Source of the DNA: an uncultured Planctomycetia bacterium
GTDB lineage: Bacteria; Omnitrophota; Gorgyraeia; Pluralincolimonadales; Pluralincolimonadaceae
Reading direction: 5' to 3'
Assembly: GCA_964650515.1 (NCBI GenBank)
Contig: CAZYUB010000001.1
Coordinates: 65,726 to 129,725 of the forward strand
DNA length: 64,000 bases
In this document: positions 2,643 through 59,044 of the stretch, piece after piece
How positions within the stretch are numbered: position 1 is the first letter of the stretch
Layout of the letters: the number at the start of each line of letters is the position of its first letter
Position numbers and translations under genes: made by a program
The notes under the pieces: model-generated
Databases searched by the model: none
Told to the model about the DNA's origin: nothing
What the model saw: the letters and a program-made list of their open reading frames with translations, nothing else

Positions 2643-3257
2643 ATGAAAAACAGGATGAGGCCCATATGCCTGTTATTTGTTTTTTTAGGGGCGCTTCTAT
2701 CCGTCCTCCCGGCGGCTGACGCCGGCGAACTCATGATAGCGAGTTTTGAAGGGAACGGGCGGAGCGACCTCGGCACCGACATAGGCGCGTGGAATTCCAA
2801 CCCGCTTGATACCTCGCAGGGCTGCACGATCGAGATGAAAAAACTCTACGGCGTGCTCGGAAAACCGACCGAAGAGAGCCGCGTGATGATGATATCCTAT
2901 GATGTCGCGGCGAGCGGCCCGGCCTTCAACGGCATATACATAAAACTCAACGATACCGACCTTACCCCTTACGACCGGATGAAGATGGCCATAAAAGGGG
3001 ACGCCGGAAAGGGGTTCACGACAAAGTTCAAGCTAGAGATGAAGAACAATAAGGGCGAGCGGGTCGTCTTCATAATAAAAGGGATTACCGCCGAATGGCA
3101 GGAAGTCACGGTGCCGATGCAGGGGCTGAAAGACCTCGGCTCCATAACCGACTGGACTAAGATGAGGGAGATCGTCTTCACCTTTGACGACATGACCTGC
3201 GATTACAAGGAAGGCGTCCTTTACGTAGACAACATAACTTTCTCGTCAGACAAGTAG
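2643..3257 (+). CDS. secreted beta-sandwich protein, paralog A (CBM11/CIA30-like fold suspected)
   Basis: AAGGAG RBS sits 7 nt upstream of the start. Sec signal peptide is MKNRMRPICLLFVFLGALLSVLPAADA. C-terminal motif REIVFTFDD...GVLYVDNITF is shared with the downstream paralog. Confidence 0.6.
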   Translation: MKNRMRPICLLFVFLGALLSVLPAADAGELMIASFEGNGRSDLGTDIGAWNSNPLDTSQGCTIEMKKLYGVLGKPTEESRVMMISYDVAASGPAFNGIYIKLNDTDLTPYDRMKMAIKGDAGKGFTTKFKLEMKNNKGERVVFIIKGITAEWQEVTVPMQGLKDLGSITDWTKMREIVFTFDDMTCDYKEGVLYVDNITFSSDK

Positions 3258-3265
3258 GCCCCGCC

Positions 3266-3937
3266 ATGCGCACCGGGACAATAATATTTCTTGTATCGTC
3301 CGTAATTTCAGCGGCGCCTGCGGTTGCCGCTGATGAGGCCGTGAAGTCGTTCATGGTGGATAATTACGACGCCGGGCAGATGTTCAACCTGCTCGGAGGC
3401 AAGACGCAGGGATACGAAGAAGCGGGAGTCAAATGCATACCGACGTTCACAAAGGACCCCGGAGAGAGGCACGGCGATAGCGGTGCTTCGCTGCGGCTGG
3501 ATTTCGACGTGAGCAAAGGCGCCGGTTTTTCATATTACTGGTCTACGCTGCTTGCGGGCAGGAAGACCGACGTTGCCGGACAAGCGATAGAGCTTATGGC
3601 GTTCAGCGACCTCAGGGGTTATGGCTTCCTTTCGTTCTGGTACAGGGACCCCGCCGGAGGCGCGCTCTTTACGATCGAGATGCACCAGGACACCGACGGG
3701 GACGGCTCGTACATAATGGGCGTGGACAAGATATCGTCGGTGGACATAGCCCAGTATATAGACAAGCTTGCAGCGGGAAAATGGCAGAAGGTCGAAATAC
3801 CGCTCTCAAGGTTCTCGAATATAAACGACTGGAGCAGGGTGCTCGATATAGTATTCGTTTTCAGGAACGGCCGCGGCCTTAATAAGGGGACGGTATTCAT
3901 AGACGACCTGTCCTTCGTCAAATACGCCGCAAGATGA
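3266..3937 (+). CDS. secreted beta-sandwich protein, paralog B
   Basis: Signal peptide is MRTGTIIFLVSSVISAAPAVAADEA. C-terminal motif WSRVLDIVFVFRNG...GTVFIDDLSF aligns with paralog A. The two genes sit in tandem 9 nt apart. Confidence 0.6.
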   Translation: MRTGTIIFLVSSVISAAPAVAADEAVKSFMVDNYDAGQMFNLLGGKTQGYEEAGVKCIPTFTKDPGERHGDSGASLRLDFDVSKGAGFSYYWSTLLAGRKTDVAGQAIELMAFSDLRGYGFLSFWYRDPAGGALFTIEMHQDTDGDGSYIMGVDKISSVDIAQYIDKLAAGKWQKVEIPLSRFSNINDWSRVLDIVFVFRNGRGLNKGTVFIDDLSFVKYAAR

Positions 3938-28700: not shown

Positions 28701-29846
28701 TCATTTTATCGTCTCAAGGACAAGCTTTTCGTTCGCGACGTCCATCTTGATATTGAAATTGCTGAGGAACGACATCCCGAGCAGCCCGTCTATGCCGTGG
28801 CCCGGGGGGTTTTCCGAAACAGCGACCGGCACGTCGTAGGCGGTCGAATTCCCGACTTTTATGCTCTTGACTATTATTACGTCGCTTTTCGTGGTGCTTC
28901 CGTCCGCGAGCGTGAAATTCACGCCTTCTATCGTATCGTTCGGGTTCGTCTCTATCTTTTGCGCTATCTCGCGCGATATCACGACTATAGACGCGCCCGT
29001 GTCGACGGCCAGCAGGCAGGTCGTGCCGCCGTTTAGTACGGCCTTGACCGTCATGCCGTTCGCCGTTTTTGTCAGCGAGACGGAGTCCCTGTTCAGGCCC
29101 TTCTCGATATCAAGGATCGCTTTTGACGCTATGCCCGCGTAGAGGGCCTCTTCCTCGCTGATGCCGCGGCTCTTCATGCCTTCGACTTTCTTATCGAACT
29201 CAAGCCGGAAATTCCCGACGGCATTCCCGTATTCGGTGATCGCCTTCCAGTAATTACGCTCGTATTCCGGAACCTTCATGCTCAACGCGTTTAGGTCCTC
29301 CACGATAGAAGCGATCTGGCTGTTCAGGGAGTTCATCTCCGTTATATGGCGGTTATAGCTCATTATGTCGCTCTGCGGATCCATCCCGGCAACCTCACCG
29401 TTGACCGCGTCGAATTTCACCCTGAGGTTCTTATATTTCTTCTTTTTTGACAATAAGGATGACTTCGCGTTATCGAGCAGTTTTTTCGCGTCGTCCGCGG
29501 CCTTCCTGCCCGCTATCAGTTCGCGGAGCTGCCTGGCCGTGTCCGCGAAGGATTCCGGGACGAGCGCGCCCTTCTCGATGGCTTTCTTCCTGGCGGCGGC
29601 CTCTATGGCGGCATTTTCCTTTTCGGAGGCCTTTTCGATGGATTCGATCTGGTCCCTGGATATCTTCATCGTGCCGGTGCCTATCGATAACGTCACGCGG
29701 TAGGGGTCCTCGGCCCTTATGACCCCCTTGAGCACGCCTTTGTTCTTAAGATAGACGGTATCGGCATGCGCCGCGGAGTGAAGCCGCGGCACAACCGCCG
29801 GCGCGAAGGCCAGCAGTATGGCTATAGCAAGTTTTCTTGTCACCAT
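28701..29846 (-). CDS. secreted retropepsin-like (clan AA) aspartic protease with coiled-coil region
   Basis: True start is placed at ATG 29844-29846, giving MVTRKLAIAILLAFAPAVVPRLHSAAHA as signal peptide. The central region is a K/E/A-rich coiled coil. The C-terminus has LLAVDTGAS (DTG motif) and GLLGMSFL, typical of the TIGR02281-like bacterial retropepsins. The upstream part of the track ORF overlaps nuoN and is rejected. Confidence 0.7.
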   Translation of the reverse strand: MVTRKLAIAILLAFAPAVVPRLHSAAHADTVYLKNKGVLKGVIRAEDPYRVTLSIGTGTMKISRDQIESIEKASEKENAAIEAAARKKAIEKGALVPESFADTARQLRELIAGRKAADDAKKLLDNAKSSLLSKKKKYKNLRVKFDAVNGEVAGMDPQSDIMSYNRHITEMNSLNSQIASIVEDLNALSMKVPEYERNYWKAITEYGNAVGNFRLEFDKKVEGMKSRGISEEEALYAGIASKAILDIEKGLNRDSVSLTKTANGMTVKAVLNGGTTCLLAVDTGASIVVISREIAQKIETNPNDTIEGVNFTLADGSTTKSDVIIVKSIKVGNSTAYDVPVAVSENPPGHGIDGLLGMSFLSNFNIKMDVANEKLVLETIK

Positions 29847-29848
29847 AT

Positions 29849-31270
29849 TTACAGTAAGGAGCTTCCTATCCACCTGAGGAACGGTACCGGGAAGAGGCCC
29901 GCTACTAGCACGCCTGCCAGCGCGATGACCAGCGCGAGCTTTACCGATAACGGCTTCGGTTCCCTGACCATAGTGTGAGGTTCGTTCAGGTACATGAATT
30001 TGACGACTTTTACGTAATAAAAGACCGCCAATACGCTGTTGATGACGCCGGCGACCGCTAGCATATAGTATTTCGACTGTATCGCGGCGGCAAAGACGAG
30101 GAACTTTCCGAAGAAACCCGCGAGAGGGGGTATGCCCGCAAGCGAGAGGAGGAATACCGTCAGTATGAACGCGAGGACGGGTTCCCGCTTCGAGAGCCCG
30201 CTGTATTCCTCGATATGGTCGCTCTTGATCGAGTTCGAGACGAGGACGACGCACCCGAACGCGCCTATATTCATCAGCACATACGCCAGAAGGTAATACA
30301 TGACCGCCTGTATGCCGAGGGACGTCCCGACGACGAAACCTATCAGAATATAGCCGGCCTGCGCTATCGAAGAATAACCGAGCATGCGCTTGATGTCTTC
30401 CTGGTTGATAGCGATGATATTTCCGGCGGTCATCGTGATTATCGCGACCGCCTGCGCTATATCCGCCCAGCCGGTGAACATCGGGAAGAAATTCTTCAGG
30501 AAGACCCTGACGAGGATCGCGAAACCTATCGCCTTGGGCCCGGCGGACAGGAATGCGGTTATCGGCGTCGGCGCGCCCTGGTAGGCGTCAGGCACCCACA
30601 TATGGAACGGGACGAGCGCGCATTTGAAACTAAGCCCGGCGAAGACCAGCAGCAGCGCCACCGCGGCGGCGAGCGAATTGGAGCCCCCGGCGTTTATAGC
30701 GCCCGATATCGCGGAAAGGTCCGTCGTGCCGAAAAGGCCGTATATAAACGATATACCGTAGAGCATAACCCCGGTCGCGAGCGCGCCGAACAGGAAATAC
30801 TTAAGCGCGGCTTCGCTCGAGAACGGGTTGCGTTTCAGGAAAGCGGTAAGCATATACGAGATCAGTGATATCGCCTCAAGCGATATGTATATCATCATCA
30901 GGTTGTTCGAGGATGCGGCTACCATCATGGCCACTGCGGCCGCGAGCAGCAGGAAATAGTATTCGCCGGCGTCCTCATCGGAGAACGGCCTGTACCCGAG
31001 CGATACCAGTATCACGAGCCCTGTGACAAGCAGGGAGATCTCCTTGAAGAATTCCGAGAACGTATCGTTCAGCAGCATGTTGGAGAAGAGGGGGCCCGCC
31101 GCCTCGTAACTGTGCGGCATGCATAATATGGAAAGCAGTATGGCCGCGAGGCAGAACACGCCGAGGACGGCCCTCTTTTTTACAAAGAGGCCCGCTATCA
31201 GCACCGCGACCGCCGATGCCGCAAGCAGCAGTTCGGGAAAAAAGAATTTTACGCTTTCCGCGACGCTCAA
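29849..31270 (-). CDS. nuoN: NADH-quinone oxidoreductase subunit N (TTG start inferred)
   Basis: Polytopic antiporter-like subunit. Start is set at the TTG preceded by GGGGGA, just inside the nuoM stop region. The more upstream part of the track ORF overlaps nuoM. Confidence 0.8.
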   Translation of the reverse strand: MSVAESVKFFFPELLLAASAVAVLIAGLFVKKRAVLGVFCLAAILLSILCMPHSYEAAGPLFSNMLLNDTFSEFFKEISLLVTGLVILVSLGYRPFSDEDAGEYYFLLLAAAVAMMVAASSNNLMMIYISLEAISLISYMLTAFLKRNPFSSEAALKYFLFGALATGVMLYGISFIYGLFGTTDLSAISGAINAGGSNSLAAAVALLLVFAGLSFKCALVPFHMWVPDAYQGAPTPITAFLSAGPKAIGFAILVRVFLKNFFPMFTGWADIAQAVAIITMTAGNIIAINQEDIKRMLGYSSIAQAGYILIGFVVGTSLGIQAVMYYLLAYVLMNIGAFGCVVLVSNSIKSDHIEEYSGLSKREPVLAFILTVFLLSLAGIPPLAGFFGKFLVFAAAIQSKYYMLAVAGVINSVLAVFYYVKVVKFMYLNEPHTMVREPKPLSVKLALVIALAGVLVAGLFPVPFLRWIGSSLL

Positions 31271-39622: not shown

Positions 39623-40147
39623 ATGGCAAAGTTCAAACTCAAGAAGAAGACGCTTATCTATGACGGCAGGATAGTCCGGCTCGTCGTCAGCGACGGCACG
39701 ATAAAGGGCAGGAAGGCCAGGTGGGAGGTAGTCCACCATATCGGCTCGGTGGGCATACTGCCGCTGCTGCCGGGCGGAAAGGTCGTCCTCGTGGAGCAGT
39801 TCCGTTATGCCGTCGGGGAGAAGTTGCTCGAGATACCGGCAGGCACCCTGCATAAAGGCGAAGCGCCACTGTCTGCGGCCCGCAGGGAGATTCGCGAGGA
39901 GATCGGCTATGCCGCGGAAAAGTTCGAAAAGCTCGATATCTTCTACCCCTCTCCGGGGGTAACGGATGAGTTCGTGGTCATATATAAAGCTACCTGGCTG
40001 AAGCCCTCGAGGCTGGAACCCGATTTCGACGAGGACATAAAGGTGAGGACGGTCAAGCTTTCCGACGCCTTGAAATATGTCAGGCAGGGCAGGATAAAGG
40101 ACGCAAAGACGATAATAGCGCTGCTGCTCATTTCGGGGAAAAGATGA
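39623..40147 (+). CDS. Nudix hydrolase (ADP-ribose pyrophosphatase-like)
   Basis: Nudix box GTLHKGEAPLSAARREIREEIG fits Gx5Ex7REUxEExGU. Confidence 0.85.
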   Translation: MAKFKLKKKTLIYDGRIVRLVVSDGTIKGRKARWEVVHHIGSVGILPLLPGGKVVLVEQFRYAVGEKLLEIPAGTLHKGEAPLSAARREIREEIGYAAEKFEKLDIFYPSPGVTDEFVVIYKATWLKPSRLEPDFDEDIKVRTVKLSDALKYVRQGRIKDAKTIIALLLISGKR

Positions 40148-40518
40148 AGGAACGCCTGGATATAACCGGGATACTCGAGAAGATCGCGGAGAAGGACCCG
40201 AGGTATAAGACCGACGCCTACCTCTTTGTGCTCAATGGCCTTACCCACACGGTATCGAGGTTCGAGAAGCCGCGCCATGTCAACGGCAGGGAGCTCTCCG
40301 AAGGGCTCCGCGAATACGCGATAGACCAGTTCGGCCCGCTCGCCCGCACGGTGCTGGAGAGCTGGGGGGTCACGAAGACCGAGGATTTCGGGAACATCGT
40401 ATTTAGCCTCATAAAAGCCAAACTTCTCTCCAAGACGGAAGAGGACTCGATCGATGACTTCAGGGACGTCTTCGAGTTTAAGAAAGCCCTCGATAATACC
40501 GTAAAATACGTCCTATAA
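40144..40518 (+). CDS. conserved hypothetical protein translationally coupled to the Nudix gene
   Basis: ATGA overlap with the Nudix stop. 124 aa helical protein with LFVLNGLTHTVSRF...GRELSEGLREYAIDQFGPLARTVLESWGV. I recognise no family. Confidence 0.45.
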   Translation: MKERLDITGILEKIAEKDPRYKTDAYLFVLNGLTHTVSRFEKPRHVNGRELSEGLREYAIDQFGPLARTVLESWGVTKTEDFGNIVFSLIKAKLLSKTEEDSIDDFRDVFEFKKALDNTVKYVL

Positions 40519-40707
40519 AAAAGCAATTAATTTCGTTTGACCTGCCGATGTATATAATGTATATTTATCGGAGATTCGGGGGATGGGGTAAACGCCAGGA
40601 AAGAACCAATCCTGGCAGAAAAACTCGTTCTTCGAGTCATTTTTTTGTCCATTTTTTTGGCGCGAAATATTGAAGGTTAGCGGAGCGGAGAAAAGCGAGG
40701 CTTAGAA

Positions 40708-41433
40708 GTGGGTAAGAAAGCGTTATCGGTTGTTTTCCTTATTTCGGCTATGCTTGCTTGCGGGAACACCCGCGCAGACGTTACCCTGCAGAATGCAGGG
40801 TTCGAATCCTGGACCGGAGGGTCCCCTGACGGGTGGAATGTATCTACGGTATCCGCCGGCGCAGCAGCGGGCGCGTATTCAATAAGCGATTCCGGAGTTT
40901 ACGTGAATGACGGGGCAAAAAGCGGCATGATCTATTTCTTTTCAAGGCCCAATTTCGGCAGTTTTAACATCGATACCTATATATTTCAGCGCTTGTCCGG
41001 GGCAGAGGCGGGGCAGGCATATACATTCGGTATCAGCAAACGCTGTTCCGTCGGCAGCAACTTTTCGGGCTTAGGAAGCGCTTCGATGGCCGTGGGTATA
41101 GATCCTTACGGAGGCACTGACCCGCTTTCTTCAAATATTATATGGGGCGTCGCCGATTCGACCGGGCTATACGGCCAAGACGCCGCTTTCGTCCCCCTTA
41201 CATCCGAAGCGGTCGCGCAGGGGCCGGGGATAACAGTGTTCCTGAAGAGCAATACACTTGCCCAAACATATCCGGCGGGAGGAAGCGGCCAACCGTACAG
41301 CACGGACCTGTACACGTACGCCTATTTTGATTCGGCGCAAGTCAATCCGGTTCCCGAACCGGCGACGATGCTTCTTTTCAGCGCGGGGCTCGGAGGATTA
41401 CTGATATCGAAGAGGAAAAAGCTTGAGAAATAA
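40708..41433 (+). CDS. PEP-CTERM sorting-domain protein (GTG start)
   Basis: Signal peptide present. C-terminal motif NPVPEPATMLLFSAGLGGLLISKRKK is VPEP plus TM plus a basic tail. The roughly 190 aa body is shared with the C-half of the next gene. Confidence 0.8.
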   Translation: MGKKALSVVFLISAMLACGNTRADVTLQNAGFESWTGGSPDGWNVSTVSAGAAAGAYSISDSGVYVNDGAKSGMIYFFSRPNFGSFNIDTYIFQRLSGAEAGQAYTFGISKRCSVGSNFSGLGSASMAVGIDPYGGTDPLSSNIIWGVADSTGLYGQDAAFVPLTSEAVAQGPGITVFLKSNTLAQTYPAGGSGQPYSTDLYTYAYFDSAQVNPVPEPATMLLFSAGLGGLLISKRKKLEK

Positions 41434-42967
41434 ATTAATAATCATAACAGCGGCGCTATTGTGCATTTCCGGAAACGCGCAAGCGCTGGATATAAGCGGC
41501 TACGACGCGGACCTCTATGACCGTTTCGTCGCAGGCACTTACGGCACCGATAACCCGATAGCCAATTCTGACTTCATCGGCGCTTCTTACGACTGGTCAG
41601 GCGTCGGATGGCAGACGGACCAGAACTGGAAGAGCGTGGCGATGGTCTCCGCGCAGAACTTCGTATGCGCGAACCATTACAGGGTGCCGGTAGGGAGCAC
41701 CGTCTCGTTCTTTAACGCGGACGGGCAGCTCAAGACCTATACCGTGCAGGGTTACTCCACGTTCGACTACCAGCTTACGCAGAACGGCAATCCACTCTTC
41801 GATAACAACGGCAACCCTTATATGTGCATACCGGACCTCGCTCTCGGCTGGCTTACAGAGGCGATCCCGGTTTCGGACGGCATCACGGCCTATTCGGTGC
41901 TTGACGCCGATGATTATTCCACCTCGTGGTTCGATACCGGCTGGTACGTCGGCAAGGACATCCTTTCGTACGGCTGGACCGCGAAAGCAGGGAACAATAC
42001 GATAGATAACTTCCAGAATGTCGCCACCACCGGTTTTTCCAATCCGACTAACGGCACGACGACCGCTGTTTACAGCTACGACAGGAACAATGACCCGCAG
42101 GGGCAGGCGGGGGCGCAGGGTGGCGACTCAGGAAGCCCGAGCTTCATGGTATGGGACGGGCAGCTGACCATCGCGGGAACACATTTCGCCGTATCTAACG
42201 GCACCGAGGCCTGGAATACCTACGATTCTTTCGTGCCGTATTATGCCGACGCTATCGATGCCGCGATGAGTTCCGCCGGGTATTCCCTTAACAGGATAAC
42301 TATAGATGTCTTTCCGACGAAGCTGAAGAACGCGGGTTTCGAGAGCGTGAGCTGGAATACCTGCCAGCCCAATGACTGGAACTACCGGGAAACTTCGTCC
42401 GGCGGCTTCTTCTTCGACACATCCTATTACAGCGGCGGGAACAAAAGATCAGGCACGTATTCTGTCGGGATGGGCGAGGAGATAAATGACGCGGGTTCGT
42501 TCGAGCATGACGGCTCTTTCAACCAGACGCTGGCGGGCTCGACCGCGGGTACGACTTACGGATTCTCGTTCTGGTTCCAGAGCGTAAATTATATACCGGC
42601 GGATATGCTGGCATCCGATGCGACCGTGATGGTGGCCGCCGGCATCGACCCGACGGGCGGTTCCGATCCCGATTCGCCCGATATAATATGGAACATGGTC
42701 GCGCTGACGCCCGAGCAGTTCACCGCCGCCTGGCAGCAGATGATAGTGACCGCGCAGTCCAACGGCACGCCGATGACGTTCTTCATCCGCAGGCACCTGT
42801 TATGCAACATATCCGAAGCCGATATCGCGGCCGGCAGGTATTGGAGCTCGTCTATATACGTGGACGACGCTTCGATATTCATCGTGCCCGAGCCCGCGAC
42901 TTTCCTGATGCTCATGGCGGGGCTTTCCGGCCTCCGGTTTTTCTTCCCAAGAAGGCGCCCTTCGTAG
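41423..42967 (+). CDS. PEP-CTERM protein with N-terminal trypsin-like (S1) domain
   Basis: Signal peptide present. Candidate triad residues are H85 in FVCANHY, D138 in IPDLALGWL and S236 in GGDSGSPS. The spacings 53 and 98 resemble those of the S1 fold. C-terminal domain is homologous to the previous gene. VPEPATFLMLMAGLSGL...RRR is the PEP-CTERM anchor. Confidence 0.7.
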   Translation: MRNKLIIITAALLCISGNAQALDISGYDADLYDRFVAGTYGTDNPIANSDFIGASYDWSGVGWQTDQNWKSVAMVSAQNFVCANHYRVPVGSTVSFFNADGQLKTYTVQGYSTFDYQLTQNGNPLFDNNGNPYMCIPDLALGWLTEAIPVSDGITAYSVLDADDYSTSWFDTGWYVGKDILSYGWTAKAGNNTIDNFQNVATTGFSNPTNGTTTAVYSYDRNNDPQGQAGAQGGDSGSPSFMVWDGQLTIAGTHFAVSNGTEAWNTYDSFVPYYADAIDAAMSSAGYSLNRITIDVFPTKLKNAGFESVSWNTCQPNDWNYRETSSGGFFFDTSYYSGGNKRSGTYSVGMGEEINDAGSFEHDGSFNQTLAGSTAGTTYGFSFWFQSVNYIPADMLASDATVMVAAGIDPTGGSDPDSPDIIWNMVALTPEQFTAAWQQMIVTAQSNGTPMTFFIRRHLLCNISEADIAAGRYWSSSIYVDDASIFIVPEPATFLMLMAGLSGLRFFFPRRRPS

Positions 42968-42994
42968 TATAATCTTCGCTCGGAGGGATCCATC

Positions 42995-45661
42995 GTGAAG
43001 TGGTACCAGCTCGGCCAAGAAGAAGTATTCTCTGCCTTTAAGGCTTCCGAATCGGGGCTTAACAGCCCTGAGGCGTCCAGGCGCCTTTCCGAATACGGCC
43101 CCAACTCCCTTCCGGAAGAAGGAAAAATAAGCAAGCTTAAGATACTTATCCACCAGTTCGCAAACCCGCTTATCTATATCCTTATGGCGGCTGCGGTCGT
43201 CACTACCGTCCTGAAAGATTATATAGATACCGGTGTCATCGCCGGCGTCCTTATCCTTAACGCTATAATAGGTTTTATACAGGAATTCAGGGCCGAGACG
43301 AGCGTCAGGGCGCTCAGGGCCATGACCGTCACGAAGGCAAGGGTCCTGCGCGACGGCATCGAAAAGGAGATCGACAGCAGGGGGCTCGTACCCGGCGATG
43401 TCGTGATGCTCGCCTCAGGAGACAAGGTGCCCGCGGAGATGCGCTTGTTCGGCGTCAACGAGCTTAATATCGAAGAAGCGATGCTGACCGGTGAGTCGCT
43501 TCCGGTCGAGAAGACGGTAAAGCCCATATCCGAAGACGACCTGACTTACGGCGACCAGACAAATATCGCGTTCATGGGGACGATGGTCGTAAGGGGCAGG
43601 GGGAAGGGCGTGGTAGTCGGGACTGGTGTCAAGACCGCGCTCGGCCGCATCGCGAAGGACGTCAAGGAACTTTCCATAACGAAGAACCCCCTGCAGGAGA
43701 AGATAGAGAAGTTCGCGCATTTTATCGGGGCGCTTTCGATAGGCGGCGCCGCGGCGGTATTCGCGCTCGGCATGGCGCTCGGCTTCAAGGCCGCGGAGAT
43801 GTTCAAGACCGCCGTGGCCGTAACGGTCGCGACGGTGCCGGAGGGGCTCCCGATAGTCGTTACCGTCACGATGGCTATAGGGCTGAACAGGATGGCGCGC
43901 CGCAACGCGATAATACGCAAACTCCACGCGGTCGAAACGCTCGGCAGCACGACGGTCATCTGTTCCGACAAGACCGGGACCCTGACGAAGAACGAGATGA
44001 CGGTGCGCCTTATACATGACGGCCGCAAGGCCTATGAGGTCGAAGGCACCGGTTATGAGCCGAGGGGTTATATACTGCATGAAGGTAACCGGGCGGACAT
44101 CTCCGAGCTCAACGACTTGCAGGGCCTCCTGAGGATAGGCCTGCTCTGCAACGAGTCCGAGATATACGAGGAGGAAGGGCGTTTCAAGGTCAAGGGCGAC
44201 CCGACCGAAGGCGCGTTGATCGTCTCCGCGATGAAGGCGGGGCTCGATCCCGAGAAAGAGAGGGACGCATACCCGCAGATCTCCGTGATACCGTTCGAGT
44301 CCGACCGCGGGTATATGGCGACGCTCCATGACCGCGGCGGAAAGCGGCTTATTTTTGTAAAAGGCACGCCGGAGAACATCGTCGGTATGTGCACCGAATG
44401 CATGCTCGACGGCGAGTTGAGAAGGAAAGAGATACTCAGGGCTTCCGAATCGTTCGCGGCTGAGGGGATGAGGGTCCTCGCAATGGGGTATAAGGAAGCG
44501 CCCGCGGGCTCGGAGGCGCTTACGCATGATGACATAAAAGAAGGCGTGAAATTCGCCGGGCTCCAGGGCATGATAGACCCGCCCAGGCCCGAATCGATAG
44601 AAGCGATAAAGGGCTGCAAGGCCGCCGGGATAAGGGTGGTCATGATAACCGGCGACCACGCCGTGACCGCCGGCGCTATAGGCAGGCAGATAGGGATAAC
44701 CGGCGGCGACGCGAAAGTCATAACGGGCAAGGAACTCGCGGTCATGGGCGACGGCGAGCTATACGAGAGGGTGGCGGATGTCTCGATATTCGCGAGGGTC
44801 GCGCCGGAGCATAAGCTCAGGATAGTCCAGCAGTTGATGAAGCGCGGCGAGATCGTCGCGGTGACCGGCGACGGCGTAAACGACGCTCCCGCGCTCAAGG
44901 CCGCGCACATAGGCGTCGCGATGGGCCGTTCAGGGACCGATGTCGCGAAGGAAGCGGCCGATATGGTGGTCGTCGACGACAATTTCGCGAGCATCTTCAG
45001 CGCCGTTGAAGAAGGCAGGATCGTCTTCGATAACCTGCGCAAGGTCGTGGTCTTCCTTATACCGACAGGTTTCGCCGCACTGATATCCATAGGCATATCT
45101 ATGGTCCTCGGCCTCCCGGCTCCGTACCTTCCCGCGCAGCTGCTCTGGATAAACCTCGTAACGAACGGCCTGCAGGACGTGGCGCTCGGTTTCGAGCCGG
45201 GCGAGAAGGATATAATAAGGAGAAAGCCGAGGCCCCCGAAAGAGGGGATCATGTCCCGCCTGATGCTCGAAAGGAGCATCCTCGTGGGCTCGTTGATATC
45301 CGCAGGCGTCGTATTCAATTATCTCGCGGCCATAAAGGACGGCGGCGATATCGCGAACGCGAGGACTACGGCGGTCACAACGATGGTATTCTTCCAGTTC
45401 TTCCAGGCATGGAACTCCCGCTCCGAGACCGTATCCGTGTTCAGGATTCCGCTGCTGAGCAACCCGTTCCTCTTCTACAGCATGATAGCGGCGTTCTTCG
45501 CGCAGCTCGCCTTCATCTATGTCCCGGCGATGCAGTGGGTCTTCAGGACCGTCCCGTTGACGGCGGCGGAGTGGGGGCGTATCGCACTGGTCTCACTGTC
45601 CGTCATCATAGTCGTGGAGCTGGACAAGGCCGCAAGGAACAGGTTCTCCCGCGGCAGGTAA
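42995..45661 (+). CDS. P-type cation-transporting ATPase (type IIA, Ca2+-ATPase-like), GTG start
   Basis: DKTGTLT phosphorylation motif. TGDGVNDAPALK motif. Ten-TM architecture. Length is 888 aa. Confidence 0.9.
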   Translation: MKWYQLGQEEVFSAFKASESGLNSPEASRRLSEYGPNSLPEEGKISKLKILIHQFANPLIYILMAAAVVTTVLKDYIDTGVIAGVLILNAIIGFIQEFRAETSVRALRAMTVTKARVLRDGIEKEIDSRGLVPGDVVMLASGDKVPAEMRLFGVNELNIEEAMLTGESLPVEKTVKPISEDDLTYGDQTNIAFMGTMVVRGRGKGVVVGTGVKTALGRIAKDVKELSITKNPLQEKIEKFAHFIGALSIGGAAAVFALGMALGFKAAEMFKTAVAVTVATVPEGLPIVVTVTMAIGLNRMARRNAIIRKLHAVETLGSTTVICSDKTGTLTKNEMTVRLIHDGRKAYEVEGTGYEPRGYILHEGNRADISELNDLQGLLRIGLLCNESEIYEEEGRFKVKGDPTEGALIVSAMKAGLDPEKERDAYPQISVIPFESDRGYMATLHDRGGKRLIFVKGTPENIVGMCTECMLDGELRRKEILRASESFAAEGMRVLAMGYKEAPAGSEALTHDDIKEGVKFAGLQGMIDPPRPESIEAIKGCKAAGIRVVMITGDHAVTAGAIGRQIGITGGDAKVITGKELAVMGDGELYERVADVSIFARVAPEHKLRIVQQLMKRGEIVAVTGDGVNDAPALKAAHIGVAMGRSGTDVAKEAADMVVVDDNFASIFSAVEEGRIVFDNLRKVVVFLIPTGFAALISIGISMVLGLPAPYLPAQLLWINLVTNGLQDVALGFEPGEKDIIRRKPRPPKEGIMSRLMLERSILVGSLISAGVVFNYLAAIKDGGDIANARTTAVTTMVFFQFFQAWNSRSETVSVFRIPLLSNPFLFYSMIAAFFAQLAFIYVPAMQWVFRTVPLTAAEWGRIALVSLSVIIVVELDKAARNRFSRGR

Positions 45662-45744: not shown

Positions 45745-46203
45745 ATGGCTACAGATCTCGACAGGTTGAACAACGACAGCGTGCGCCGGCTCGTTAATGT
45801 CTCTGAGGCGATAATCAAGGCCGCCGACAGGTTCTTCGCGAAGTTCGGCGTGACTACCGCCCAGTACGATATCCTTGTGATACTGAAATACTCCAAAAGG
45901 AGATTGACCCAAAGCGACCTCGGGATAAACAGGGTCGTCTCCCGCTCTAACATAACCGGCATCCTCGACAGGCTGGAGAAGACCGGCATGGCGAAGAGGG
46001 AAGGCAGCGCCGACGACCGCAGGATAAAGCATATCTCGATAACAAAAAAAGGCCTCGACCTCATAGATAAAGTAGAAGGCAAGTATTTCGATAACGTAAA
46101 GAAGCTCGTATGGTTCCTCGACGATAAGGATAAGAAGGGGCTCGTCGAGATCCTGGACCGGCTCGAGAGGGGCCTAAGGAGGGCGGAAGATGTATTATCA
46201 TGA
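45745..46203 (+). CDS. MarR-family transcriptional regulator
   Basis: Winged-helix region TTAQYDILVILKYSKRRLTQSDLGINRVVSRSNITGILDRLEKTGMAKR. Length is 152 aa. Confidence 0.85.
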   Translation: MATDLDRLNNDSVRRLVNVSEAIIKAADRFFAKFGVTTAQYDILVILKYSKRRLTQSDLGINRVVSRSNITGILDRLEKTGMAKREGSADDRRIKHISITKKGLDLIDKVEGKYFDNVKKLVWFLDDKDKKGLVEILDRLERGLRRAEDVLS

Positions 46204-48832
46204 TATTTTCAACCTGTTCGAATATTTCCCGCTGCTGTGGATAGCGTCCATAATCGCGACGCCTATAATTGCCGGGAACAAGAAACGCAACGCTGTCCTG
46301 TGGCTGTTGCTGGCGATACCGCTGGGGCCGCTCGCACTTTTCATCATTGCCGTAATGCCTAAGCCCGACAGGGCCAAGGAAGACCCATCCGGGCTCGACG
46401 CAAGGATCTCGGACCTCGAAAGGCGCGTATGGCGCATCGAGCACGCCGCAATACAGGCTGCGCCGAAAGAAGCGGCGCAGCCCGAGATAAAGCCCGTCAT
46501 TGCCGAGACGCCGCGGCCTGCGGCACATCAGGAGGTCCGGCCGAAACCCGTTCCTGCGCCCAGCCACGATCTCGAGCAGAAGATGGGCCGCTATTGGCTC
46601 AACCGCATAGGCATCCTCGTGCTCGCGATGGGTGTCGCGTTCCTTGTAAGCTATACATTCAAGTATTTCGGACCGTTCGTGAAGATACTTACCGGATACC
46701 TTATAGCGTCCGCGCTGTTCATTACCGGCTTCAGGCTGGAGAGGAAGCAGAAGTACGTGTATTACGGGCGCACCCTGCTCGGCGGCGCGTGGGCTATAGC
46801 TTATTTTACGACGTATGCAATGTACCATTTCCCGGCGTCGCGCATAATTCATAGCCAGCTTCTTGACCTTGTCCTGCTCGCCGTCGTAGCGGTAGCGATG
46901 CTGCTGCGCTCGTTGAGGTACAAGTCCCAGGAGCTGTCATCTGTCGCGCTCTTCGTGGGTTATTTCACGGCCACGATGGGAGACATCAACTATTTCACGC
47001 TCGCGAGCTGCCTCATGCTCGCGGTAATATCAGTAATACTCGTGTATAAGATGCGCTGGCTCAGGATGATATTCATAGGGATAGCGCTGACCTACCTTAC
47101 GCATATATTCTGGGTGGTAAAGCAGGTCAAGCTGTCGTATGTCCCCATCGGGCAGCTCGACGTCAGCCAGGTGCAGTTCTGGCTGAATAACGGGTTCGTA
47201 TTCCTTTACTGGCTTGTATTCACAGTCTCGATATATATGATAAGGAACCCCGTGGAAAGGGAGGAGAAGCAACTCGCGGTCGCGAACTTTTCCAACTTCC
47301 TTCCTTTCTTCGTGCTGGCGTATTCCAGGATATACGTGGAATACCCGGAATGGAAGTTCCCGTTCGTCCTCGGGCTCGGCATAGTTTACTCCGCGCTGGC
47401 GTTCATATCGTCCCGCGCGAAGAACGGCATCATGACGACGGTAAACACGCTTATAGCGCTGTCGCTCGTGACGTTCTCGATACCGCTCATGGCGGTCCCG
47501 CTCAGCACGACGATAATATGGCTGGTCGAGCTCCCGTGCCTGGTCTACATCGGCCAGCGTTTCGGGAATAAGGCGTTCAGGATATTCGCCCTGCTGTTAT
47601 CCGCGGCCGTATTCTTCAGGGTCGCGACATTCGATTTCGCGATATCGAAAGACCTCGTATTGCTGATAGGCGCGCTGTCGTCTTTCGCGAGCGTGTTCGT
47701 ATCCAGGATGATCAAGGAAGATGCCGCGTTCAGGGGGGAGAAGTTCCTCGTAAACGCGTATTCGCTGTTCGGTACCGTATATTTGACAACGCTGCTATGG
47801 AACAAAGTCCCGGAAGCGTGGCTTGGCACGGCGCTCTTCGAAGAAGTGTTTGCTCTTGCGCTGGCAGCCTGCCTGATGAAGGACAAGGCGCTGCGCGCTT
47901 ATTCGTATATCCTCATCATTGTCGCCTTGATCGTGTTATACTTTACAGGCACCGGAAATAATTTTATCTGGATAATTGTCCAGCTGCCGGCGCTCCTGTT
48001 CATAGGGCTGCGTTACGGCATGAGGCCTGTCAGGATAATCGCCCTCGCGAGCGCCGCGGCCTTGTTCATGAGGGCGTGTTGGGCGGACAGCAGGATGATT
48101 GCGTTCGCCGGTATGGCGGCGATGTACCTTTGCGATTGCCTTAACAGGTATCTGAAACGCGAGGAGAGCTTTGGCGGAGAAAGTAATCTGATAAAGGCGT
48201 ACTCGGCGCTCGGGACCGCGTATCTGACGTTCTTCCTCTGGGATATCGTCCCTCTGCGCTGGCTGACACTCGCGCTTGCGTCCGAGATGGCGGCCCTGTT
48301 TATAGTCGGCCGCACCGTCAAGGACGCGTCTTTCCGGGTTTATTCGCTCGTCCTGCTTGTGATGGCGGCTTTCCGCATGGCTTTTATTGACGGGAGCGGA
48401 GGATTCGGCGCAGCGGACTGGACGGCTTTTGCGGTCGAGGCCGCGATGATGGCCTTCGTCTACCTGTCGTATAGGGGCATGAAGAACAGGAACGAGGTAT
48501 CCGGGGTCGAAAATCCGGCGCCTACGGCCGTATTCGTGATCGCCGCGCTGGCGCTTACCTTTGTCATGTTTGATAACGTCGAAAGGAACCTCATAAGTTT
48601 GGCTTTGGGCGTGGAAGGAGCGGCCATGTTCGCGCTCGGCTTCGCGGCGAAAGACAAGGCCTCGAGGATTGGCGGTTTTGGCGTTTTCGGGATCACGCTG
48701 GCGAGGATAATCATCGTGGACATGGCGCATGTAGCGGTTACCTATAAGATAATAAGTTTCATGGCCCTCGGCGCCATATTCCTTGTAACGTCGTTCTTGT
48801 ATAACAAATACAATATAGGCCGGGATAAATGA
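46190..48832 (+). CDS. large polytopic membrane protein (DUF2339-like)
   Basis: 880 aa with more than 20 predicted TM helices. The protein has a short N-terminal membrane hairpin followed by a proline-rich linker. The start overlaps the marR stop. Confidence 0.5.
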   Translation: MYYHDIFNLFEYFPLLWIASIIATPIIAGNKKRNAVLWLLLAIPLGPLALFIIAVMPKPDRAKEDPSGLDARISDLERRVWRIEHAAIQAAPKEAAQPEIKPVIAETPRPAAHQEVRPKPVPAPSHDLEQKMGRYWLNRIGILVLAMGVAFLVSYTFKYFGPFVKILTGYLIASALFITGFRLERKQKYVYYGRTLLGGAWAIAYFTTYAMYHFPASRIIHSQLLDLVLLAVVAVAMLLRSLRYKSQELSSVALFVGYFTATMGDINYFTLASCLMLAVISVILVYKMRWLRMIFIGIALTYLTHIFWVVKQVKLSYVPIGQLDVSQVQFWLNNGFVFLYWLVFTVSIYMIRNPVEREEKQLAVANFSNFLPFFVLAYSRIYVEYPEWKFPFVLGLGIVYSALAFISSRAKNGIMTTVNTLIALSLVTFSIPLMAVPLSTTIIWLVELPCLVYIGQRFGNKAFRIFALLLSAAVFFRVATFDFAISKDLVLLIGALSSFASVFVSRMIKEDAAFRGEKFLVNAYSLFGTVYLTTLLWNKVPEAWLGTALFEEVFALALAACLMKDKALRAYSYILIIVALIVLYFTGTGNNFIWIIVQLPALLFIGLRYGMRPVRIIALASAAALFMRACWADSRMIAFAGMAAMYLCDCLNRYLKREESFGGESNLIKAYSALGTAYLTFFLWDIVPLRWLTLALASEMAALFIVGRTVKDASFRVYSLVLLVMAAFRMAFIDGSGGFGAADWTAFAVEAAMMAFVYLSYRGMKNRNEVSGVENPAPTAVFVIAALALTFVMFDNVERNLISLALGVEGAAMFALGFAAKDKASRIGGFGVFGITLARIIIVDMAHVAVTYKIISFMALGAIFLVTSFLYNKYNIGRDK

Positions 48833-56911: not shown

Positions 56912-59044
56912 ATGCTTATATTTCGATGTTCTTCTCAGCAAGCGCAATCGCGCTTGCCATTTTGTTTTATAGCCTATATAATACAGCTGATGAACCCTGC
57001 CAACGTGAGCAATTTAGACAGAGCCGCGGTAGTCAGGAAGATACCGCTTTTTTCGGACCTGCCGCAGGTGGCGCAGAAGCTTATAGAAGAGCGCTGCTAC
57101 ATAGCGGAGTACAGGAAGGGCCATATCCTGTACAGGGAAGGCCTTCCGTCAGATTCTTTTTATTGTATCGTCTCCGGCCGTGCGAAAGTGTTCGTGAAGA
57201 CGCCTTCGGGCGAGGAGAAGACCCTCATATTCCTGCACAGGGGCGATTACGTCGGGATCGTGTCCCTGCTGACCAACGAGCCCCATTCCGCTTCGGTGCA
57301 GATGGTCAACGATTCCGTAGTCCTCAGGATAGACAAGAAGGATTTCGGCCAGCTTCTTAACGATGTCCCGCAACTCGCGCTTAAGCTCAGCGAATCGCTT
57401 TCGCGCCGCCTGAAAAGGAAAGAATCCAGGGCCAAGGCCGTATTCGAATCCACGATAATATCGGTCTATGGGCCCGCCAAGAAGACCGGCAGGACGATGT
57501 ATTCGGTGAACCTCGCGATAGCGCTCGCTTACGAGACGCGCAAAAAGGTCATGCTGATAGATATGAGCGCGACGGGCAAAGAATGCTCGTCGATGCTGCG
57601 CATGGAAGGCGAACTCCCCTGCGTCGGCATGGAGTCCGGCATGCTCAGTTACGAGGACGTGAAGGACAAGATGATCAAGTATGAGGCCGGGGGCATATTC
57701 CTGCTTAACGCCGCCTGCGGCCCGTCATCGCGCATAGACTCAGGCACGGTGATATCACTGCTCAGTTCGATAGCCGCGGAATTCAATTATATTGTCGTGG
57801 ATATGCCCGCGGAGATGGACAAGCCGATATATTCCGTATTGACCCAATCCGACCTGATACATATCGTCACCGATTCCGGGGAGCATAATCTCAGGTCCAC
57901 CGGACGGCTCATAGAGGAGCTCAGGAAGACGGTAAAGGACCCCGACGCGACGATAAAGACGATAATAAACGAATTCGTCATGACAAAGACATTCGAGGAG
58001 GAGATCAAGCTTCTCGGGCACAAGGCGTACGCGACATTGCCGGACCTTGGTATGCTTGCGGGAATGATGGCAGCGGGCCTGCCGCCGGTCCTCGCGGTGC
58101 CGGAATGCCTCTATTCGAGGTCGGTGCGCAGGATCGCCAGGGAGATAGGCAGGATACTCGTGGGCCTCGCGCTCGGTTCAGGCGCGGCGCTCGGCCTTGT
58201 CCATATAGGGGTGCTGAAAGTCCTCGAGAAAGAGAAGATACCGATAGATTTTATCGCGGGGACCTCGATCGGCGCGGTCGTAGCCGCGTTCTGGGCGTCG
58301 GGCATGGAAGCGGCCGAGCTCGAAAAGGTCGCGATGAGGTTCAAGGACAGGAAGATGCTGCTTTCGCTCGCGGACTTCTCGCTGATGCCTCTGCAGGGTT
58401 TCCTTAACGGGAACAACCTCAAGAAACTTTACCGTGAGTACCTCGGAAGGAAGACGTTCCACGACACGCATACGCCGCTCAAGATAGTCGCGAACACGCT
58501 GCGCTCGCGCGAAAACATAATATTCGACGAGGGAAGCCTGGTCGACGCGGTCCGCGCGTCGAGCTCGATACCCGCGATAATAAAGCCGGTCCGTTACGGC
58601 GATGATTTCCTGATAGACGGCGGGACGTTCGATCCGGTGCCGATAGACGTGCTCATGAAAGGCGGCGCAAAGAAGATCATAGCGGTCAACTGCCTGCCGA
58701 GCCAGGACGAGATGAAGAAGATATTCGACGAGTTCGAGCAGAAACGCCGCAAGGAAGAGGCAAAACTCGCGAACGGCTCGATATTCGCGCGCATATCGTA
58801 TAATTTCAATAACTGGGTGCGCAGGACATTCGCGCCGAACGTATTCGACGTGATGATGAACACCTCGCTCGCCATGCAGTATGTGCTGGCCGAGGAGTCG
58901 TCGCGCGAAGCGGACTGCGTAATACACCCCATACTCACGAACGCGGTCTGGTTCGAGCTGTATAAGGCGGAAGAGCTTATCAAGCGCGGTGAGGAGGAGA
59001 CACGCAGGATGCTCCCCCAGATAAAAGCGCTTATCGAAGAATAA
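56912..59044 (+). CDS. cNMP-binding domain - degenerate ParA/CpaE-like domain - patatin-like phospholipase
   Basis: cNMP-binding beta-barrel at about aa 40-160. Central MinD/ParA-like segment without an intact Walker A. Patatin motifs GLALGSGAALG (GxGxxG), GTSIGAVV (GxSxG) and IDGGTFD (DGG). Confidence 0.75.
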   Translation: MLIFRCSSQQAQSRLPFCFIAYIIQLMNPANVSNLDRAAVVRKIPLFSDLPQVAQKLIEERCYIAEYRKGHILYREGLPSDSFYCIVSGRAKVFVKTPSGEEKTLIFLHRGDYVGIVSLLTNEPHSASVQMVNDSVVLRIDKKDFGQLLNDVPQLALKLSESLSRRLKRKESRAKAVFESTIISVYGPAKKTGRTMYSVNLAIALAYETRKKVMLIDMSATGKECSSMLRMEGELPCVGMESGMLSYEDVKDKMIKYEAGGIFLLNAACGPSSRIDSGTVISLLSSIAAEFNYIVVDMPAEMDKPIYSVLTQSDLIHIVTDSGEHNLRSTGRLIEELRKTVKDPDATIKTIINEFVMTKTFEEEIKLLGHKAYATLPDLGMLAGMMAAGLPPVLAVPECLYSRSVRRIAREIGRILVGLALGSGAALGLVHIGVLKVLEKEKIPIDFIAGTSIGAVVAAFWASGMEAAELEKVAMRFKDRKMLLSLADFSLMPLQGFLNGNNLKKLYREYLGRKTFHDTHTPLKIVANTLRSRENIIFDEGSLVDAVRASSSIPAIIKPVRYGDDFLIDGGTFDPVPIDVLMKGGAKKIIAVNCLPSQDEMKKIFDEFEQKRRKEEAKLANGSIFARISYNFNNWVRRTFAPNVFDVMMNTSLAMQYVLAEESSREADCVIHPILTNAVWFELYKAEELIKRGEEETRRMLPQIKALIEE

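Follow-up and report, generated by a model that had tools for sequence, protein, structure and literature searches.

Two overlapping genes in the genome of an uncultured Omnitrophota bacterium, here called open reading frames A and B (ORF-A and ORF-B), encode proteins that share a domain and a type of C-terminal tail, with a protease-like domain in ORF-B. This raises the question of what the two proteins do, where they act and whether they form a partnership. The genes lie in a stretch of 64,000 nucleotides (contig CAZYUB010000001.1, positions 65,726 to 129,725 of the forward strand), referred to as the window, whose numbering is used throughout. Both were found where an original prediction had placed them:

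40708-41433, + strand: ORF-A, GTG start, 241 amino acids (signal peptide, beta-sandwich resembling a carbohydrate-binding module (CBM), PEP-CTERM tail)
41423-42967, + strand: ORF-B, TTG start, 514 amino acids (signal peptide, S1-type peptidase domain, CBM-like domain, PEP-CTERM tail)

It is probable that ORF-A and ORF-B form a two-gene unit for exported proteins of the envelope or cell surface, consisting of an S1 protease docked on glycan and a non-catalytic binding protein, both sorted by PEP-CTERM tails. The type of architecture is already known. What is new is an S1 subfamily, covered by no existing model, across the phyla of the Planctomycetes-Verrucomicrobia-Chlamydiae (PVC) group, together with a rare binding module.

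The N-terminal domain of ORF-B

The features of the putative protease domain are as follows:

41486-42310, + strand: divergent S1 (chymotrypsin-fold) peptidase domain, residues 22-296, from AlphaFold, Foldseek, hhalign and PF00089 matches in relatives
41675-41677, + strand: codon CAT of His85, in CANHY, equivalent to chymotrypsin H57 (155/156 members)
41834-41836, + strand: codon GAC of Asp138, in PDLAL, equivalent to D102 (156/156 members)
42125-42130, + strand: codons GAC TCA of Asp235-Ser236, in GDSGSP, equivalent to D194-S195 (155/156 members each), with Ser236 at 42128-42130

An AlphaFold2 model of ORF-B, built on 23 homologues, had a mean predicted local distance difference test score (pLDDT) of 83.5, with most of residues 22-296 above 90, and gave 408 Foldseek matches in the PDB at E<=1e-3. 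The S1 domain matched thrombin, prostasin, plasmin, factor Xa, chymotrypsin, Vibrio cholerae VesC and norovirus NS6 (E~1e-7, probability 1.00, template modelling (TM) scores normalised to the target of 0.5-0.69), which bears out the chymotrypsin fold proposed earlier for this half of the protein. When the sequence profile of the domain was searched against PDB sequences at E<=10, 65 weak matches were returned (E of 0.03 and weaker) and 65 of 65 were chymotrypsin-fold proteases. Alignment with hhalign to chymotrypsinogen A, whose sequence was entered by hand, gave a single colinear alignment (E=8.6e-4). The contexts CANHY, PDLAL and GDSGSP, in which a catalytic triad had been proposed, read as originally quoted and fall in register, with ANHY on AAHC (H57), DLAL on DITL (D102) and GDSGSP on GDSGGP (S195). 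The same profile aligned to bovine trypsin alone was uninformative (probability 1.3 %).

His85, Asp138 and Ser236 were invariant in 23 of 23 close homologues. In a hidden Markov model (HMM) alignment of 156 diverse members, His85, Asp235 and Ser236 were each retained in 155 and Asp138 in all 156. Judged from these alignments, conservation of the triad is far beyond chance. The ratio of nonsynonymous to synonymous divergence (dN/dS) of the S1 domain was 0.065-0.082 across three orthologues, and the constraint on the triad is of the kind expected of an active enzyme, so that activity is predicted. Pfam Trypsin (PF00089) was matched by 15 of 105 relatives, with a best E value of 1.8e-9; one of these relatives (P0040) scored 26.4 bits against a cutoff of 20.6 over model positions 30-204 of 220. 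Trypsin_2 (PF13365) was matched by two of the 105. Because the fold match, the profile matches in the PDB, the register of the triad and the Trypsin matches across the family converge, homology of ORF-B to family S1 can be taken as established at sequence level, transitively via its relatives. Gly230, read from the sequence as the residue six before Ser236, occupies the position of Asp189 in trypsin, so ORF-B would not be expected to favour basic P1 residues as trypsin does.

Two points count against the assignment. The globular domains of ORF-A and ORF-B have no Pfam or NCBIfam match in the window copy, in which PEP-CTERM is the sole match; ORF-B does not match PF00089 or PF13365 even at E<=10, and phmmer of ORF-B against PDB sequences gave no match. 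In addition, the adjacency of His85, Asp138 and Ser236 in three dimensions is a prediction from the fold match and the in-register alignment. ORF-B could alternatively be a pseudo-protease, a binding protein that keeps the chymotrypsin fold and does not cleave peptides; the failure of the window copy on all curated protease models fits this, as do the 37-residue N-terminal extension and the unusual family motifs DRF, GVGW and GTHF. Pseudo-enzymes, however, do not uphold what is seen here, with the histidine, aspartate and serine and the GDSG oxyanion-hole glycines invariant in 155-156 of 156 diverse members and a dN/dS of 0.07, and a pseudo-protease is hardly credible.

The domain shared by ORF-A and ORF-B

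Outside the protease domain, the two proteins have the following region in common:

40777-41346, + strand: CBM-like beta-sandwich of ORF-A, residues 24-213, from AlphaFold and Foldseek, holding the loop GIDPxGGxDPxSxxIIW
42323-42883, + strand: CBM-like beta-sandwich of ORF-B, residues 301-487, homologous to the body of ORF-A, from BLASTP and Foldseek

Residues 27-237 of ORF-A aligned with residues 301-512 of ORF-B by BLASTP (E=1e-19, 31 % identity), and the motifs VGIDPYGGTDPLSSNIIW and AGIDPTGGSDPDSPDIIW are present in the two proteins. The shared domain of about 190 amino acids recognised in the original prediction is thus a real homologous module. Its signature consists of an LxNxGFE...W start, the invariant loop GIDPxGGxDPxSxxIIW, TxF and a YxDD end. 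The domain is rare, with eight matches among 5.8 billion proteins in a profile search. Distant copies among these eight carry the same GIDPTGG motif, and one of them, from Chloroflexota, is fused to LysM repeats. The dN/dS values for the domain were 0.10 in ORF-A (against the L008 orthologue) and 0.11-0.14 in ORF-B.

The AlphaFold model of ORF-A (14 sequences; pLDDT 84.8, predicted TM score 0.77) was an all-beta sandwich. The CBM-like fold for which the original prediction had proposed a check was borne out by Foldseek, in which the best match was TmCBM61 with galactotriose (2xom, E=5.6e-9, target TM 0.67), followed in order by 4d0q (the hyaluronan-binding CBM70 of pneumococcal hyaluronate lyase), 2c26, the CBA120 tailspike TSP4 and an arabinanase CBM; CBM4 (1gui, 3k4z), an alginate-binding CBM (8zqf) and CBM22 (4xup) ranked lower. 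The best match of the C-terminal domain of ORF-B was likewise TmCBM61 (E=4e-8). Compared with CBM61 (2xom), CBM70 (4d0q), CBM4 (1gui, 3k4z) and CBM22 (4xup), the domain has the same jelly-roll beta-sandwich and a similar size (Foldseek E=5.6e-9 to 1e-5, target-normalised TM up to 0.67), whereas by sequence it stands outside these families and has its own invariant loop. ORF-A and ORF-B gave no Pfam match at E<=1 that would place the domain in a defined CBM family, and its profile gave no match to PDB sequences. A distant relative (P0036) had a sub-threshold match to CBM_4_9 (PF02018, E=0.008), and hhalign of the domain to another (P0034) gave a probability of 96.5 %. Glycan binding is most likely the function of the shared domain, as predicted from its resemblance in fold.

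This prediction is weakened by the level of similarity to CBMs (TM 0.4-0.67, 13-16 % identity), at which glycan binding is a matter of fold similarity only, and by lower Foldseek matches to beta-sandwiches that do not bind glycans, such as MAM and the ephrin-receptor ligand-binding domain. The shared domain might instead serve protein binding or adhesion, or act as a spacer, with ORF-A an adhesin or structural protein and the domain of ORF-B recognising a protein substrate. The low identity and the lack of a CAZy or Pfam CBM match for either protein agree with such a role; Cry toxin and phage tail-fibre domains also appear in the Foldseek list, and VesC has a C-terminal domain that is not among the known CBMs. 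Against it, the best nine structural matches are carbohydrate-binding or carbohydrate-active modules (among them CBM61, CBM70, 2c26, the tailspike and the arabinanase CBM), the relative P0036 touches PF02018, and the LysM repeats fused to a distant copy are peptidoglycan-binding. The NxGFE start and YxDD end also resemble those of CBM_4_9-type jelly-rolls. A role other than glycan binding is accordingly considered unlikely.

PEP-CTERM tails and the search for an exosortase

Both proteins had been predicted to end in a PEP-CTERM sorting signal, which holds for each:

41347-41430, + strand: PEP-CTERM tail of ORF-A (PVPEPATMLLFSAGLGGLLISKRKKLEK), from PF07589 and TIGR02595
42884-42964, + strand: PEP-CTERM tail of ORF-B (VPEPATFLMLMAGLSGLRFFFPRRRPS), from TIGR02595 and homologue alignment

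For the ORF-A tail, PF07589 gave 25.0 bits against a cutoff of 20.7 and TIGR02595 gave 27.2 against one of 16, and the ORF-B tail passed TIGR02595 at 16.6 bits. In both, VPEP is followed by a hydrophobic transmembrane helix and an Arg/Lys cluster, and Pro489-Glu490-Pro491 of ORF-B were retained in at least 90 % of 23 aligned homologues. From these sequence features the tails are of the PEP-CTERM type. A six-frame regular-expression scan of the window found genuine tails of this layout in ORF-A and ORF-B only. Genomes with PEP-CTERM proteins always carry an exosortase according to a published co-occurrence rule (PMC3237569), and on that basis anchoring of ORF-A and ORF-B at the surface would be expected.

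Other results speak against sorting by this route. The ORF-B tail scored 18.9 bits on PF07589, just below the curated cutoff. An exosortase was missing from every set of sequences checked with Pfam: about 42 large window ORFs (among which the nuo genes, at about 30.2-39 kb, were assigned by synteny only), six contexts of relatives out to 10 kb, for which precomputed lists were used, and 10 polytopic membrane ORFs in the vicinity of relatives, where Wzx, Wzy, GT4 and transporters were identified instead. A regular expression for a 'CSG' active site, an unreliable filter, had zero matches in 1.18 Mb comprising the window and the loci. No relevant literature on PEP-CTERM or exosortase in Omnitrophota was found, and the two genomic surveys of the phylum that were examined do not mention either.

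The tails might then be plain C-terminal membrane anchors that involve no exosortase, leaving both proteins tethered to the inner membrane on its periplasmic side and ORF-B as a periplasmic protease of housekeeping or quality control. This would be in keeping with the lack of an exosortase in the window and every neighbourhood examined, with the sub-threshold PF07589 score and with the silence of these Omnitrophota surveys. It is opposed by the retention of VPEP, transmembrane helix and basic cluster across the family, by the TIGR02595 scores of both tails and by the co-occurrence rule. Moreover, the family is concentrated in PVC phyla, in which Verrucomicrobium spinosum has been reported to have a cognate exosortase (PMC3237569), and an exposed protein would be the more sensible carrier of a CBM-like module. 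Plain anchors are therefore very unlikely, and PEP-CTERM sorting is preferred.

The window contains no exopolysaccharide genes or gene cluster. A few planctomycete and verrucomicrobial members of the protease family have polysaccharide genes (Wzx-type Polysacc_synt, Wzy_C and Glycos_transf_4) as neighbours within 5-10 kb, located by Pfam at:

L065, 1374-5595: polysaccharide genes near a relative
L022, 880-2829: polysaccharide genes near a relative
L067, 19475-20788: polysaccharide genes near a relative
L058, 10080-11480: polysaccharide genes near a relative

These neighbours give weak support to a link of the protease family to envelope polysaccharide in a few lineages.

Gene structure, expression and proposed route

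The two reading frames overlap by 11 nucleotides, and each start codon has a Shine-Dalgarno-like motif, GAGG 7 nucleotides 5' of the GTG of ORF-A and AAGAGGA 6 nucleotides 5' of the TTG of ORF-B. The remaining features of the unit are:

40537-40565, + strand: sigma-70-like promoter candidate TTGACC-17-TATATT upstream of ORF-A, 10/12 consensus matches, by consensus match alone
40708-40776, + strand: signal peptide of ORF-A, residues 1-23, by inspection, predicted cut TRA/DV
41423-41485, + strand: signal peptide of ORF-B, residues 1-21, by inspection, cut AQA/LDISGY

ORF-A and ORF-B are probably co-transcribed, as judged from the sequence, because the leader with the promoter candidate is kept in the sister loci L001, L007 and L008 and there is no convincing terminator between the two genes. 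A riboswitch or structured leader was ruled out, with no Rfam match at E<=1 across 40300-43200. By inspection, both signal peptides have a basic n-region, a hydrophobic h-region and an AxA-type cleavage site. A homologue (P0027) reads AYA/VTLQNPGFE at the position of the ORF-A cut, and at the ORF-B cut the close family is invariant at three positions, with A at -3 and -1 and L at +1. Values of dN/dS were 0.07-0.14 across the domains of ORF-A and ORF-B, which are under purifying selection.

The NCBI protein for ORF-A (P0025, 227 amino acids) begins at Met15 and so lacks 40708-40749, which encodes the greater part of the signal peptide. With a start at the GTG at 40708, which the Shine-Dalgarno motif precedes, the signal peptide is complete, and the 241-residue version is present in another source (P0184). 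The 514-residue product of ORF-B is identical in NCBI (P0001).

In the favoured reading as a unit for surface proteins, both products would be exported by Sec, and signal peptidase would cut after A21 in ORF-B, exposing the invariant Leu22, and after A23 in ORF-A. The PEP-CTERM helix would then act as a transient anchor in the inner membrane until an exosortase encoded elsewhere cuts the tail and passes the protein to the cell surface or matrix. These four steps draw on established knowledge of Sec and PEP-CTERM (PMC3237569). From its fold, the CBM-like module would dock on a glycan, either of the cell's own envelope or exopolysaccharide or of another cell's surface, and from fold and conservation the S1 domain, with the triad His85, Asp138 and Ser236, would cleave nearby proteins. 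ORF-A, with the same docking module and tail and no protease, would be a non-catalytic glycan-binding protein brought to the surface by the same route. Omnitrophota have been proposed to be largely predatory or parasitic (PMC10066038), and ORF-A and ORF-B might conceivably act in contacts between cells. For the host- or prey-dependent ways of life that have been suggested for the phylum, surface proteases equipped with targeting modules would be plausible tools.

Extent of the protease family and its mature N-terminus

Searched exhaustively with a profile, 1.84 billion cluster representatives yielded 2,727 relatives of the protease at E<=1e-3 and 384 at E<=1e-30; a word-indexed homologue search, with 24 matches, was a strong under-count by comparison. 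Neither Pfam nor NCBIfam has a model for the family, and at present its members bear no annotation other than 'PEP-CTERM sorting domain-containing' or 'hypothetical'. The assignment to S1 gives a name and a testable catalytic mechanism to a protease family of at least 2,700 sequence clusters, and the shared domain adds a second, rare module that resembles glycan-binding ones. Invariant or near-invariant motifs specific to the family are DRF34-35, GVGW60-63, G184, H254 and D268. When species representatives of GTDB were scanned, members were found in Omnitrophota, Auribacterota, Verrucomicrobiota, Planctomycetota and Lentisphaerae. Carriers in Verrucomicrobiota include the cultured Verrucomicrobium sp. 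BvORR034 and BvORR106 and metagenome-assembled genomes (MAGs) assigned to Chthoniobacter and Methylacidiphilum. Outside the PVC group there were two stray MAG contigs, labelled Cryomorphaceae and Alcaligenaceae.

The S1-like domain lies almost always directly after the signal peptide, and the partners that follow it vary. PEP-CTERM tails were found in at least 65 of 144 members by a strict regular expression and in 16 of 105 by HMM, and autotransporter-type PATR repeats in 19 of 105. Dockerin, DUF11, CARDB, FG-GAP and one type IX secretion system (T9SS) tail occur occasionally. A subgroup of about 510-540 amino acids (P0143-P0178) has the same N-terminal S1-like domain and ends in ...FFRLRV.L.E, which is not PEP-CTERM and might represent another kind of sorting signal or C-terminal domain.

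Among the 106 members in which the cleavage position could be aligned (median position 25), residue -1 was A, G or S in 103, residue -3 was small or aliphatic in 105, and residue +1 was L in 88, I in 17 and M in one. A signal peptidase site thus stands directly before an invariant L/I, and there would therefore be no propeptide and a mature N-terminus fixed as L/I-x-I/V-x-G-Y. From sequence and model secondary structure, the distance from this terminus to the first core strand is about 37 residues in ORF-B compared with about 13 in chymotrypsin. Because the N-terminus is fixed and Asp235, the equivalent of Asp194, is invariant, it is suggested tentatively that removal of the signal peptide could itself be the activating cleavage, with the new N-terminus pairing with Asp235; the idea is possible and somewhat doubtful.

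Activation in S1A zymogens (Ile16-Asp194 salt bridge) and in SplB offers a parallel, in that an invariant hydrophobic mature N-terminus, comparable to IVGG, arises by a single cleavage and, as in the zymogens, the Asp before the catalytic Ser is invariant in the ORF-B family. Staphylococcal SplB requires exact N-terminal processing (PMC3793935). In ORF-B, by contrast, the proposed cut is made by signal peptidase and there would be no propeptide, and the distance from the N-terminus to the catalytic His is 63 residues in ORF-B but 41 in chymotrypsin.

Comparison with known systems

The closest architectural analogue, by analogy only, is VesB/VesC of V. cholerae (PDB 6bqm; PMC3237569), which likewise has a signal peptide, an S1 domain, a C-terminal beta-sandwich and a tripartite tail of motif, transmembrane helix and basic cluster. 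VesC was among the top Foldseek matches, with an alignment of 552 columns at a root-mean-square deviation of 23 Å. Trypsin-like proteases are recurrent cargo of C-terminal sorting tags (PMC3237569). The two systems differ in the tail, which is GlyGly-CTERM (rhombosortase) in VesB/VesC and PEP-CTERM (exosortase) in ORF-B; the GlyGly-CTERM model was absent from the NCBIfam output for ORF-A and ORF-B, in which TIGR02595 was the best-scoring sorting-domain model. The ORF-B protease is far more divergent, with no PF00089 match and a 37-residue N-terminal extension, and its host belongs to PVC/Omnitrophota rather than Gammaproteobacteria. Its second domain is CBM-like with a signature of its own, and it would lack a propeptide, which VesB carries.

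With family S1 (PF00089, PA clan), ORF-B shares the double beta-barrel, the order H-D-S, and AxH, DxxL and GDSGxP in register. Unlike typical members, ORF-B and most of its relatives lie below the reach of the model, have invariant motifs of their own and no conserved disulfides, and are restricted to PVC, apart from the two stray contigs. As in the PEP-CTERM/exosortase system (TIGR02595; Haft et al. 2006, via PMC3237569), VPEP, helix and Arg/Lys cluster accompany a signal peptide, and the tail behaves as a portable suffix on unrelated heads. The locus differs from that system in that the cognate exosortase was not seen, there are two PEP-CTERM genes in 64 kb, and no exopolysaccharide locus is adjacent. 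The results extend and do not overturn the current understanding of S1 proteases, C-terminal sorting tags and targeting by CBMs. They also show that Omnitrophota carry PEP-CTERM cargo, which the two surveys at phylum level examined do not mention.

Origin of the pair and locus context

The pairing of ORF-A and ORF-B was compared across sister loci, in which the slot after a conserved 124-amino-acid gene is variable. L001, the closest sister genome, and L002 have an ORF-B orthologue alone (81 % identical), and L008 has an A+B pair (89 % identity each). In L007 the slot holds P0030, a PEP-CTERM protein with the protease only, and then an ORF-B orthologue (88 % identical). The pairing is not conserved and the two proteins need not act together, a point against the reading as a functional unit. 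The A-B pairing is recent and lineage-specific and is not an obligate partnership.

Homology at the DNA level between the window and L007 extends up to 40661 and returns from 41345. The break corresponds to the head of ORF-A, in place of which P0030 has a protease head, and homology returns at the codons of the PEP-CTERM tail. Upstream of ORF-A, the window contains a trace of an older gene:

40612-40680, + strand: relic of an ancestral signal-peptide coding region (LAEKLVLRVIFLSIFLARNIEG*), TTG start changed to CTG, in-frame TAG at 40678-40680

The relic reads the same as the signal peptide (M(T/Q)KKLILRVIFLS...) that is still live in the L001 ORF-B orthologue and in P0030. On sequence grounds it marks the 5' breakpoint of a replacement of the head cassette. 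Because homology with L007 breaks at the head and resumes at the tail, and a dead signal-peptide relic is present, ORF-A is a chimera: an older gene kept its sorting tail but exchanged its head for a cassette that brought a new ribosome-binding site, a signal peptide and a CBM-like head. The original prediction had described ORF-B as paired with a non-catalytic paralogue. The part that stands is a homologous domain without a protease; the pairing is lineage-specific and ORF-A, as a recombinant chimera, did not arise by simple tandem duplication, so that a recombinant, lineage-specific neighbour of ORF-B is the better wording. The locus illustrates cleanly how, in nature, heads can be swapped while the PEP-CTERM tail stays in place as the fixed recombination module.

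The relic is in the same frame as ORF-A, and a similar one in L008 ends in TGA. P0030 (L007 917-1888, opposite window 40662-41344) has a tail nearly identical to that of ORF-A, and its real start is probably a TTG 12 codons 5' of the called ATG, which would give the signal peptide MQKILILRVIFLSIFLALSSAPAARA followed by LEIYGYD.

Synonymous divergence of ORF-B from the L007 and L008 orthologues was also uneven, with dS of about 0.82 in the protease half against about 0.35 in the CBM-like half, which suggests mosaicism through recombination inside the gene. A broader proposal would combine an undescribed, signal-peptidase-activated S1 subfamily of the PVC group with a head-swapping hot-spot in Omnitrophota that varies the surface of a predatory or parasitic cell (PMC10066038); as a whole, it is speculative and unlikely to hold.

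The neighbourhood of the pair consists of housekeeping genes, with the nuo operon, csp, a NUDIX gene and the 124-amino-acid gene upstream and a P-type ATPase, MarR and DUF2339 downstream. The 124-amino-acid gene (40144-40518), directly 5' of the pair, has no Pfam match, is 91-96 % identical at the amino acid level across all the sister loci, in each of which the variable PEP-CTERM slot follows it. Relative to L001, the window has additional genes for a P-type cation ATPase before MarR and an 880-amino-acid DUF2339 membrane protein after it (42995-45661 and 46190-48832). These insertions downstream of ORF-B indicate repeated insertions and deletions in the region.

Conserved gene partners were ruled out, as neighbourhoods are wholly different between lineages. 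Distant relatives lie in unrelated contexts, often variable islands with Fic or defence genes, which suggests that protease genes are often located in variable genomic regions. At L004 3142-6469, the homologue P0007 adjoins a defence-type island (a CBASS-like pair of SMODS and S_4TM, ApeA HEPN and Fic), and P0018 adjoins a Fic gene and a SocA_Panacea gene. In another Omnitrophota lineage, a protein of about 1,007-1,009 amino acids with no Pfam match, which may be a recurrent neighbour, adjoins or lies near protease-CBM genes of 505-507 amino acids (P0007, P0009):

L012, 11718-14741: protein of about 1,007-1,009 amino acids
L004, 16164-19193: protein of about 1,007-1,009 amino acids
L005, 7768-10797: protein of about 1,007-1,009 amino acids

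Elsewhere in the window, a 517-amino-acid ORF on the - strand (28704-30254), between the ATP synthase and nuo operons, carries a retropepsin-like aspartyl protease domain at its C-terminus (Asp_protease_2 / gag-asp_proteas, E~1e-16) and, as listed, overlaps the nuoN ORF. No Pfam match was obtained for two adjacent ORFs of 204 and 223 amino acids (2643-3937), which are flanked by gyrA and an amidohydrolase gene. In a 710-amino-acid protein (56912-59044), a cyclic-nucleotide-binding domain occurs together with an AAA_31-like region and a patatin phospholipase domain.

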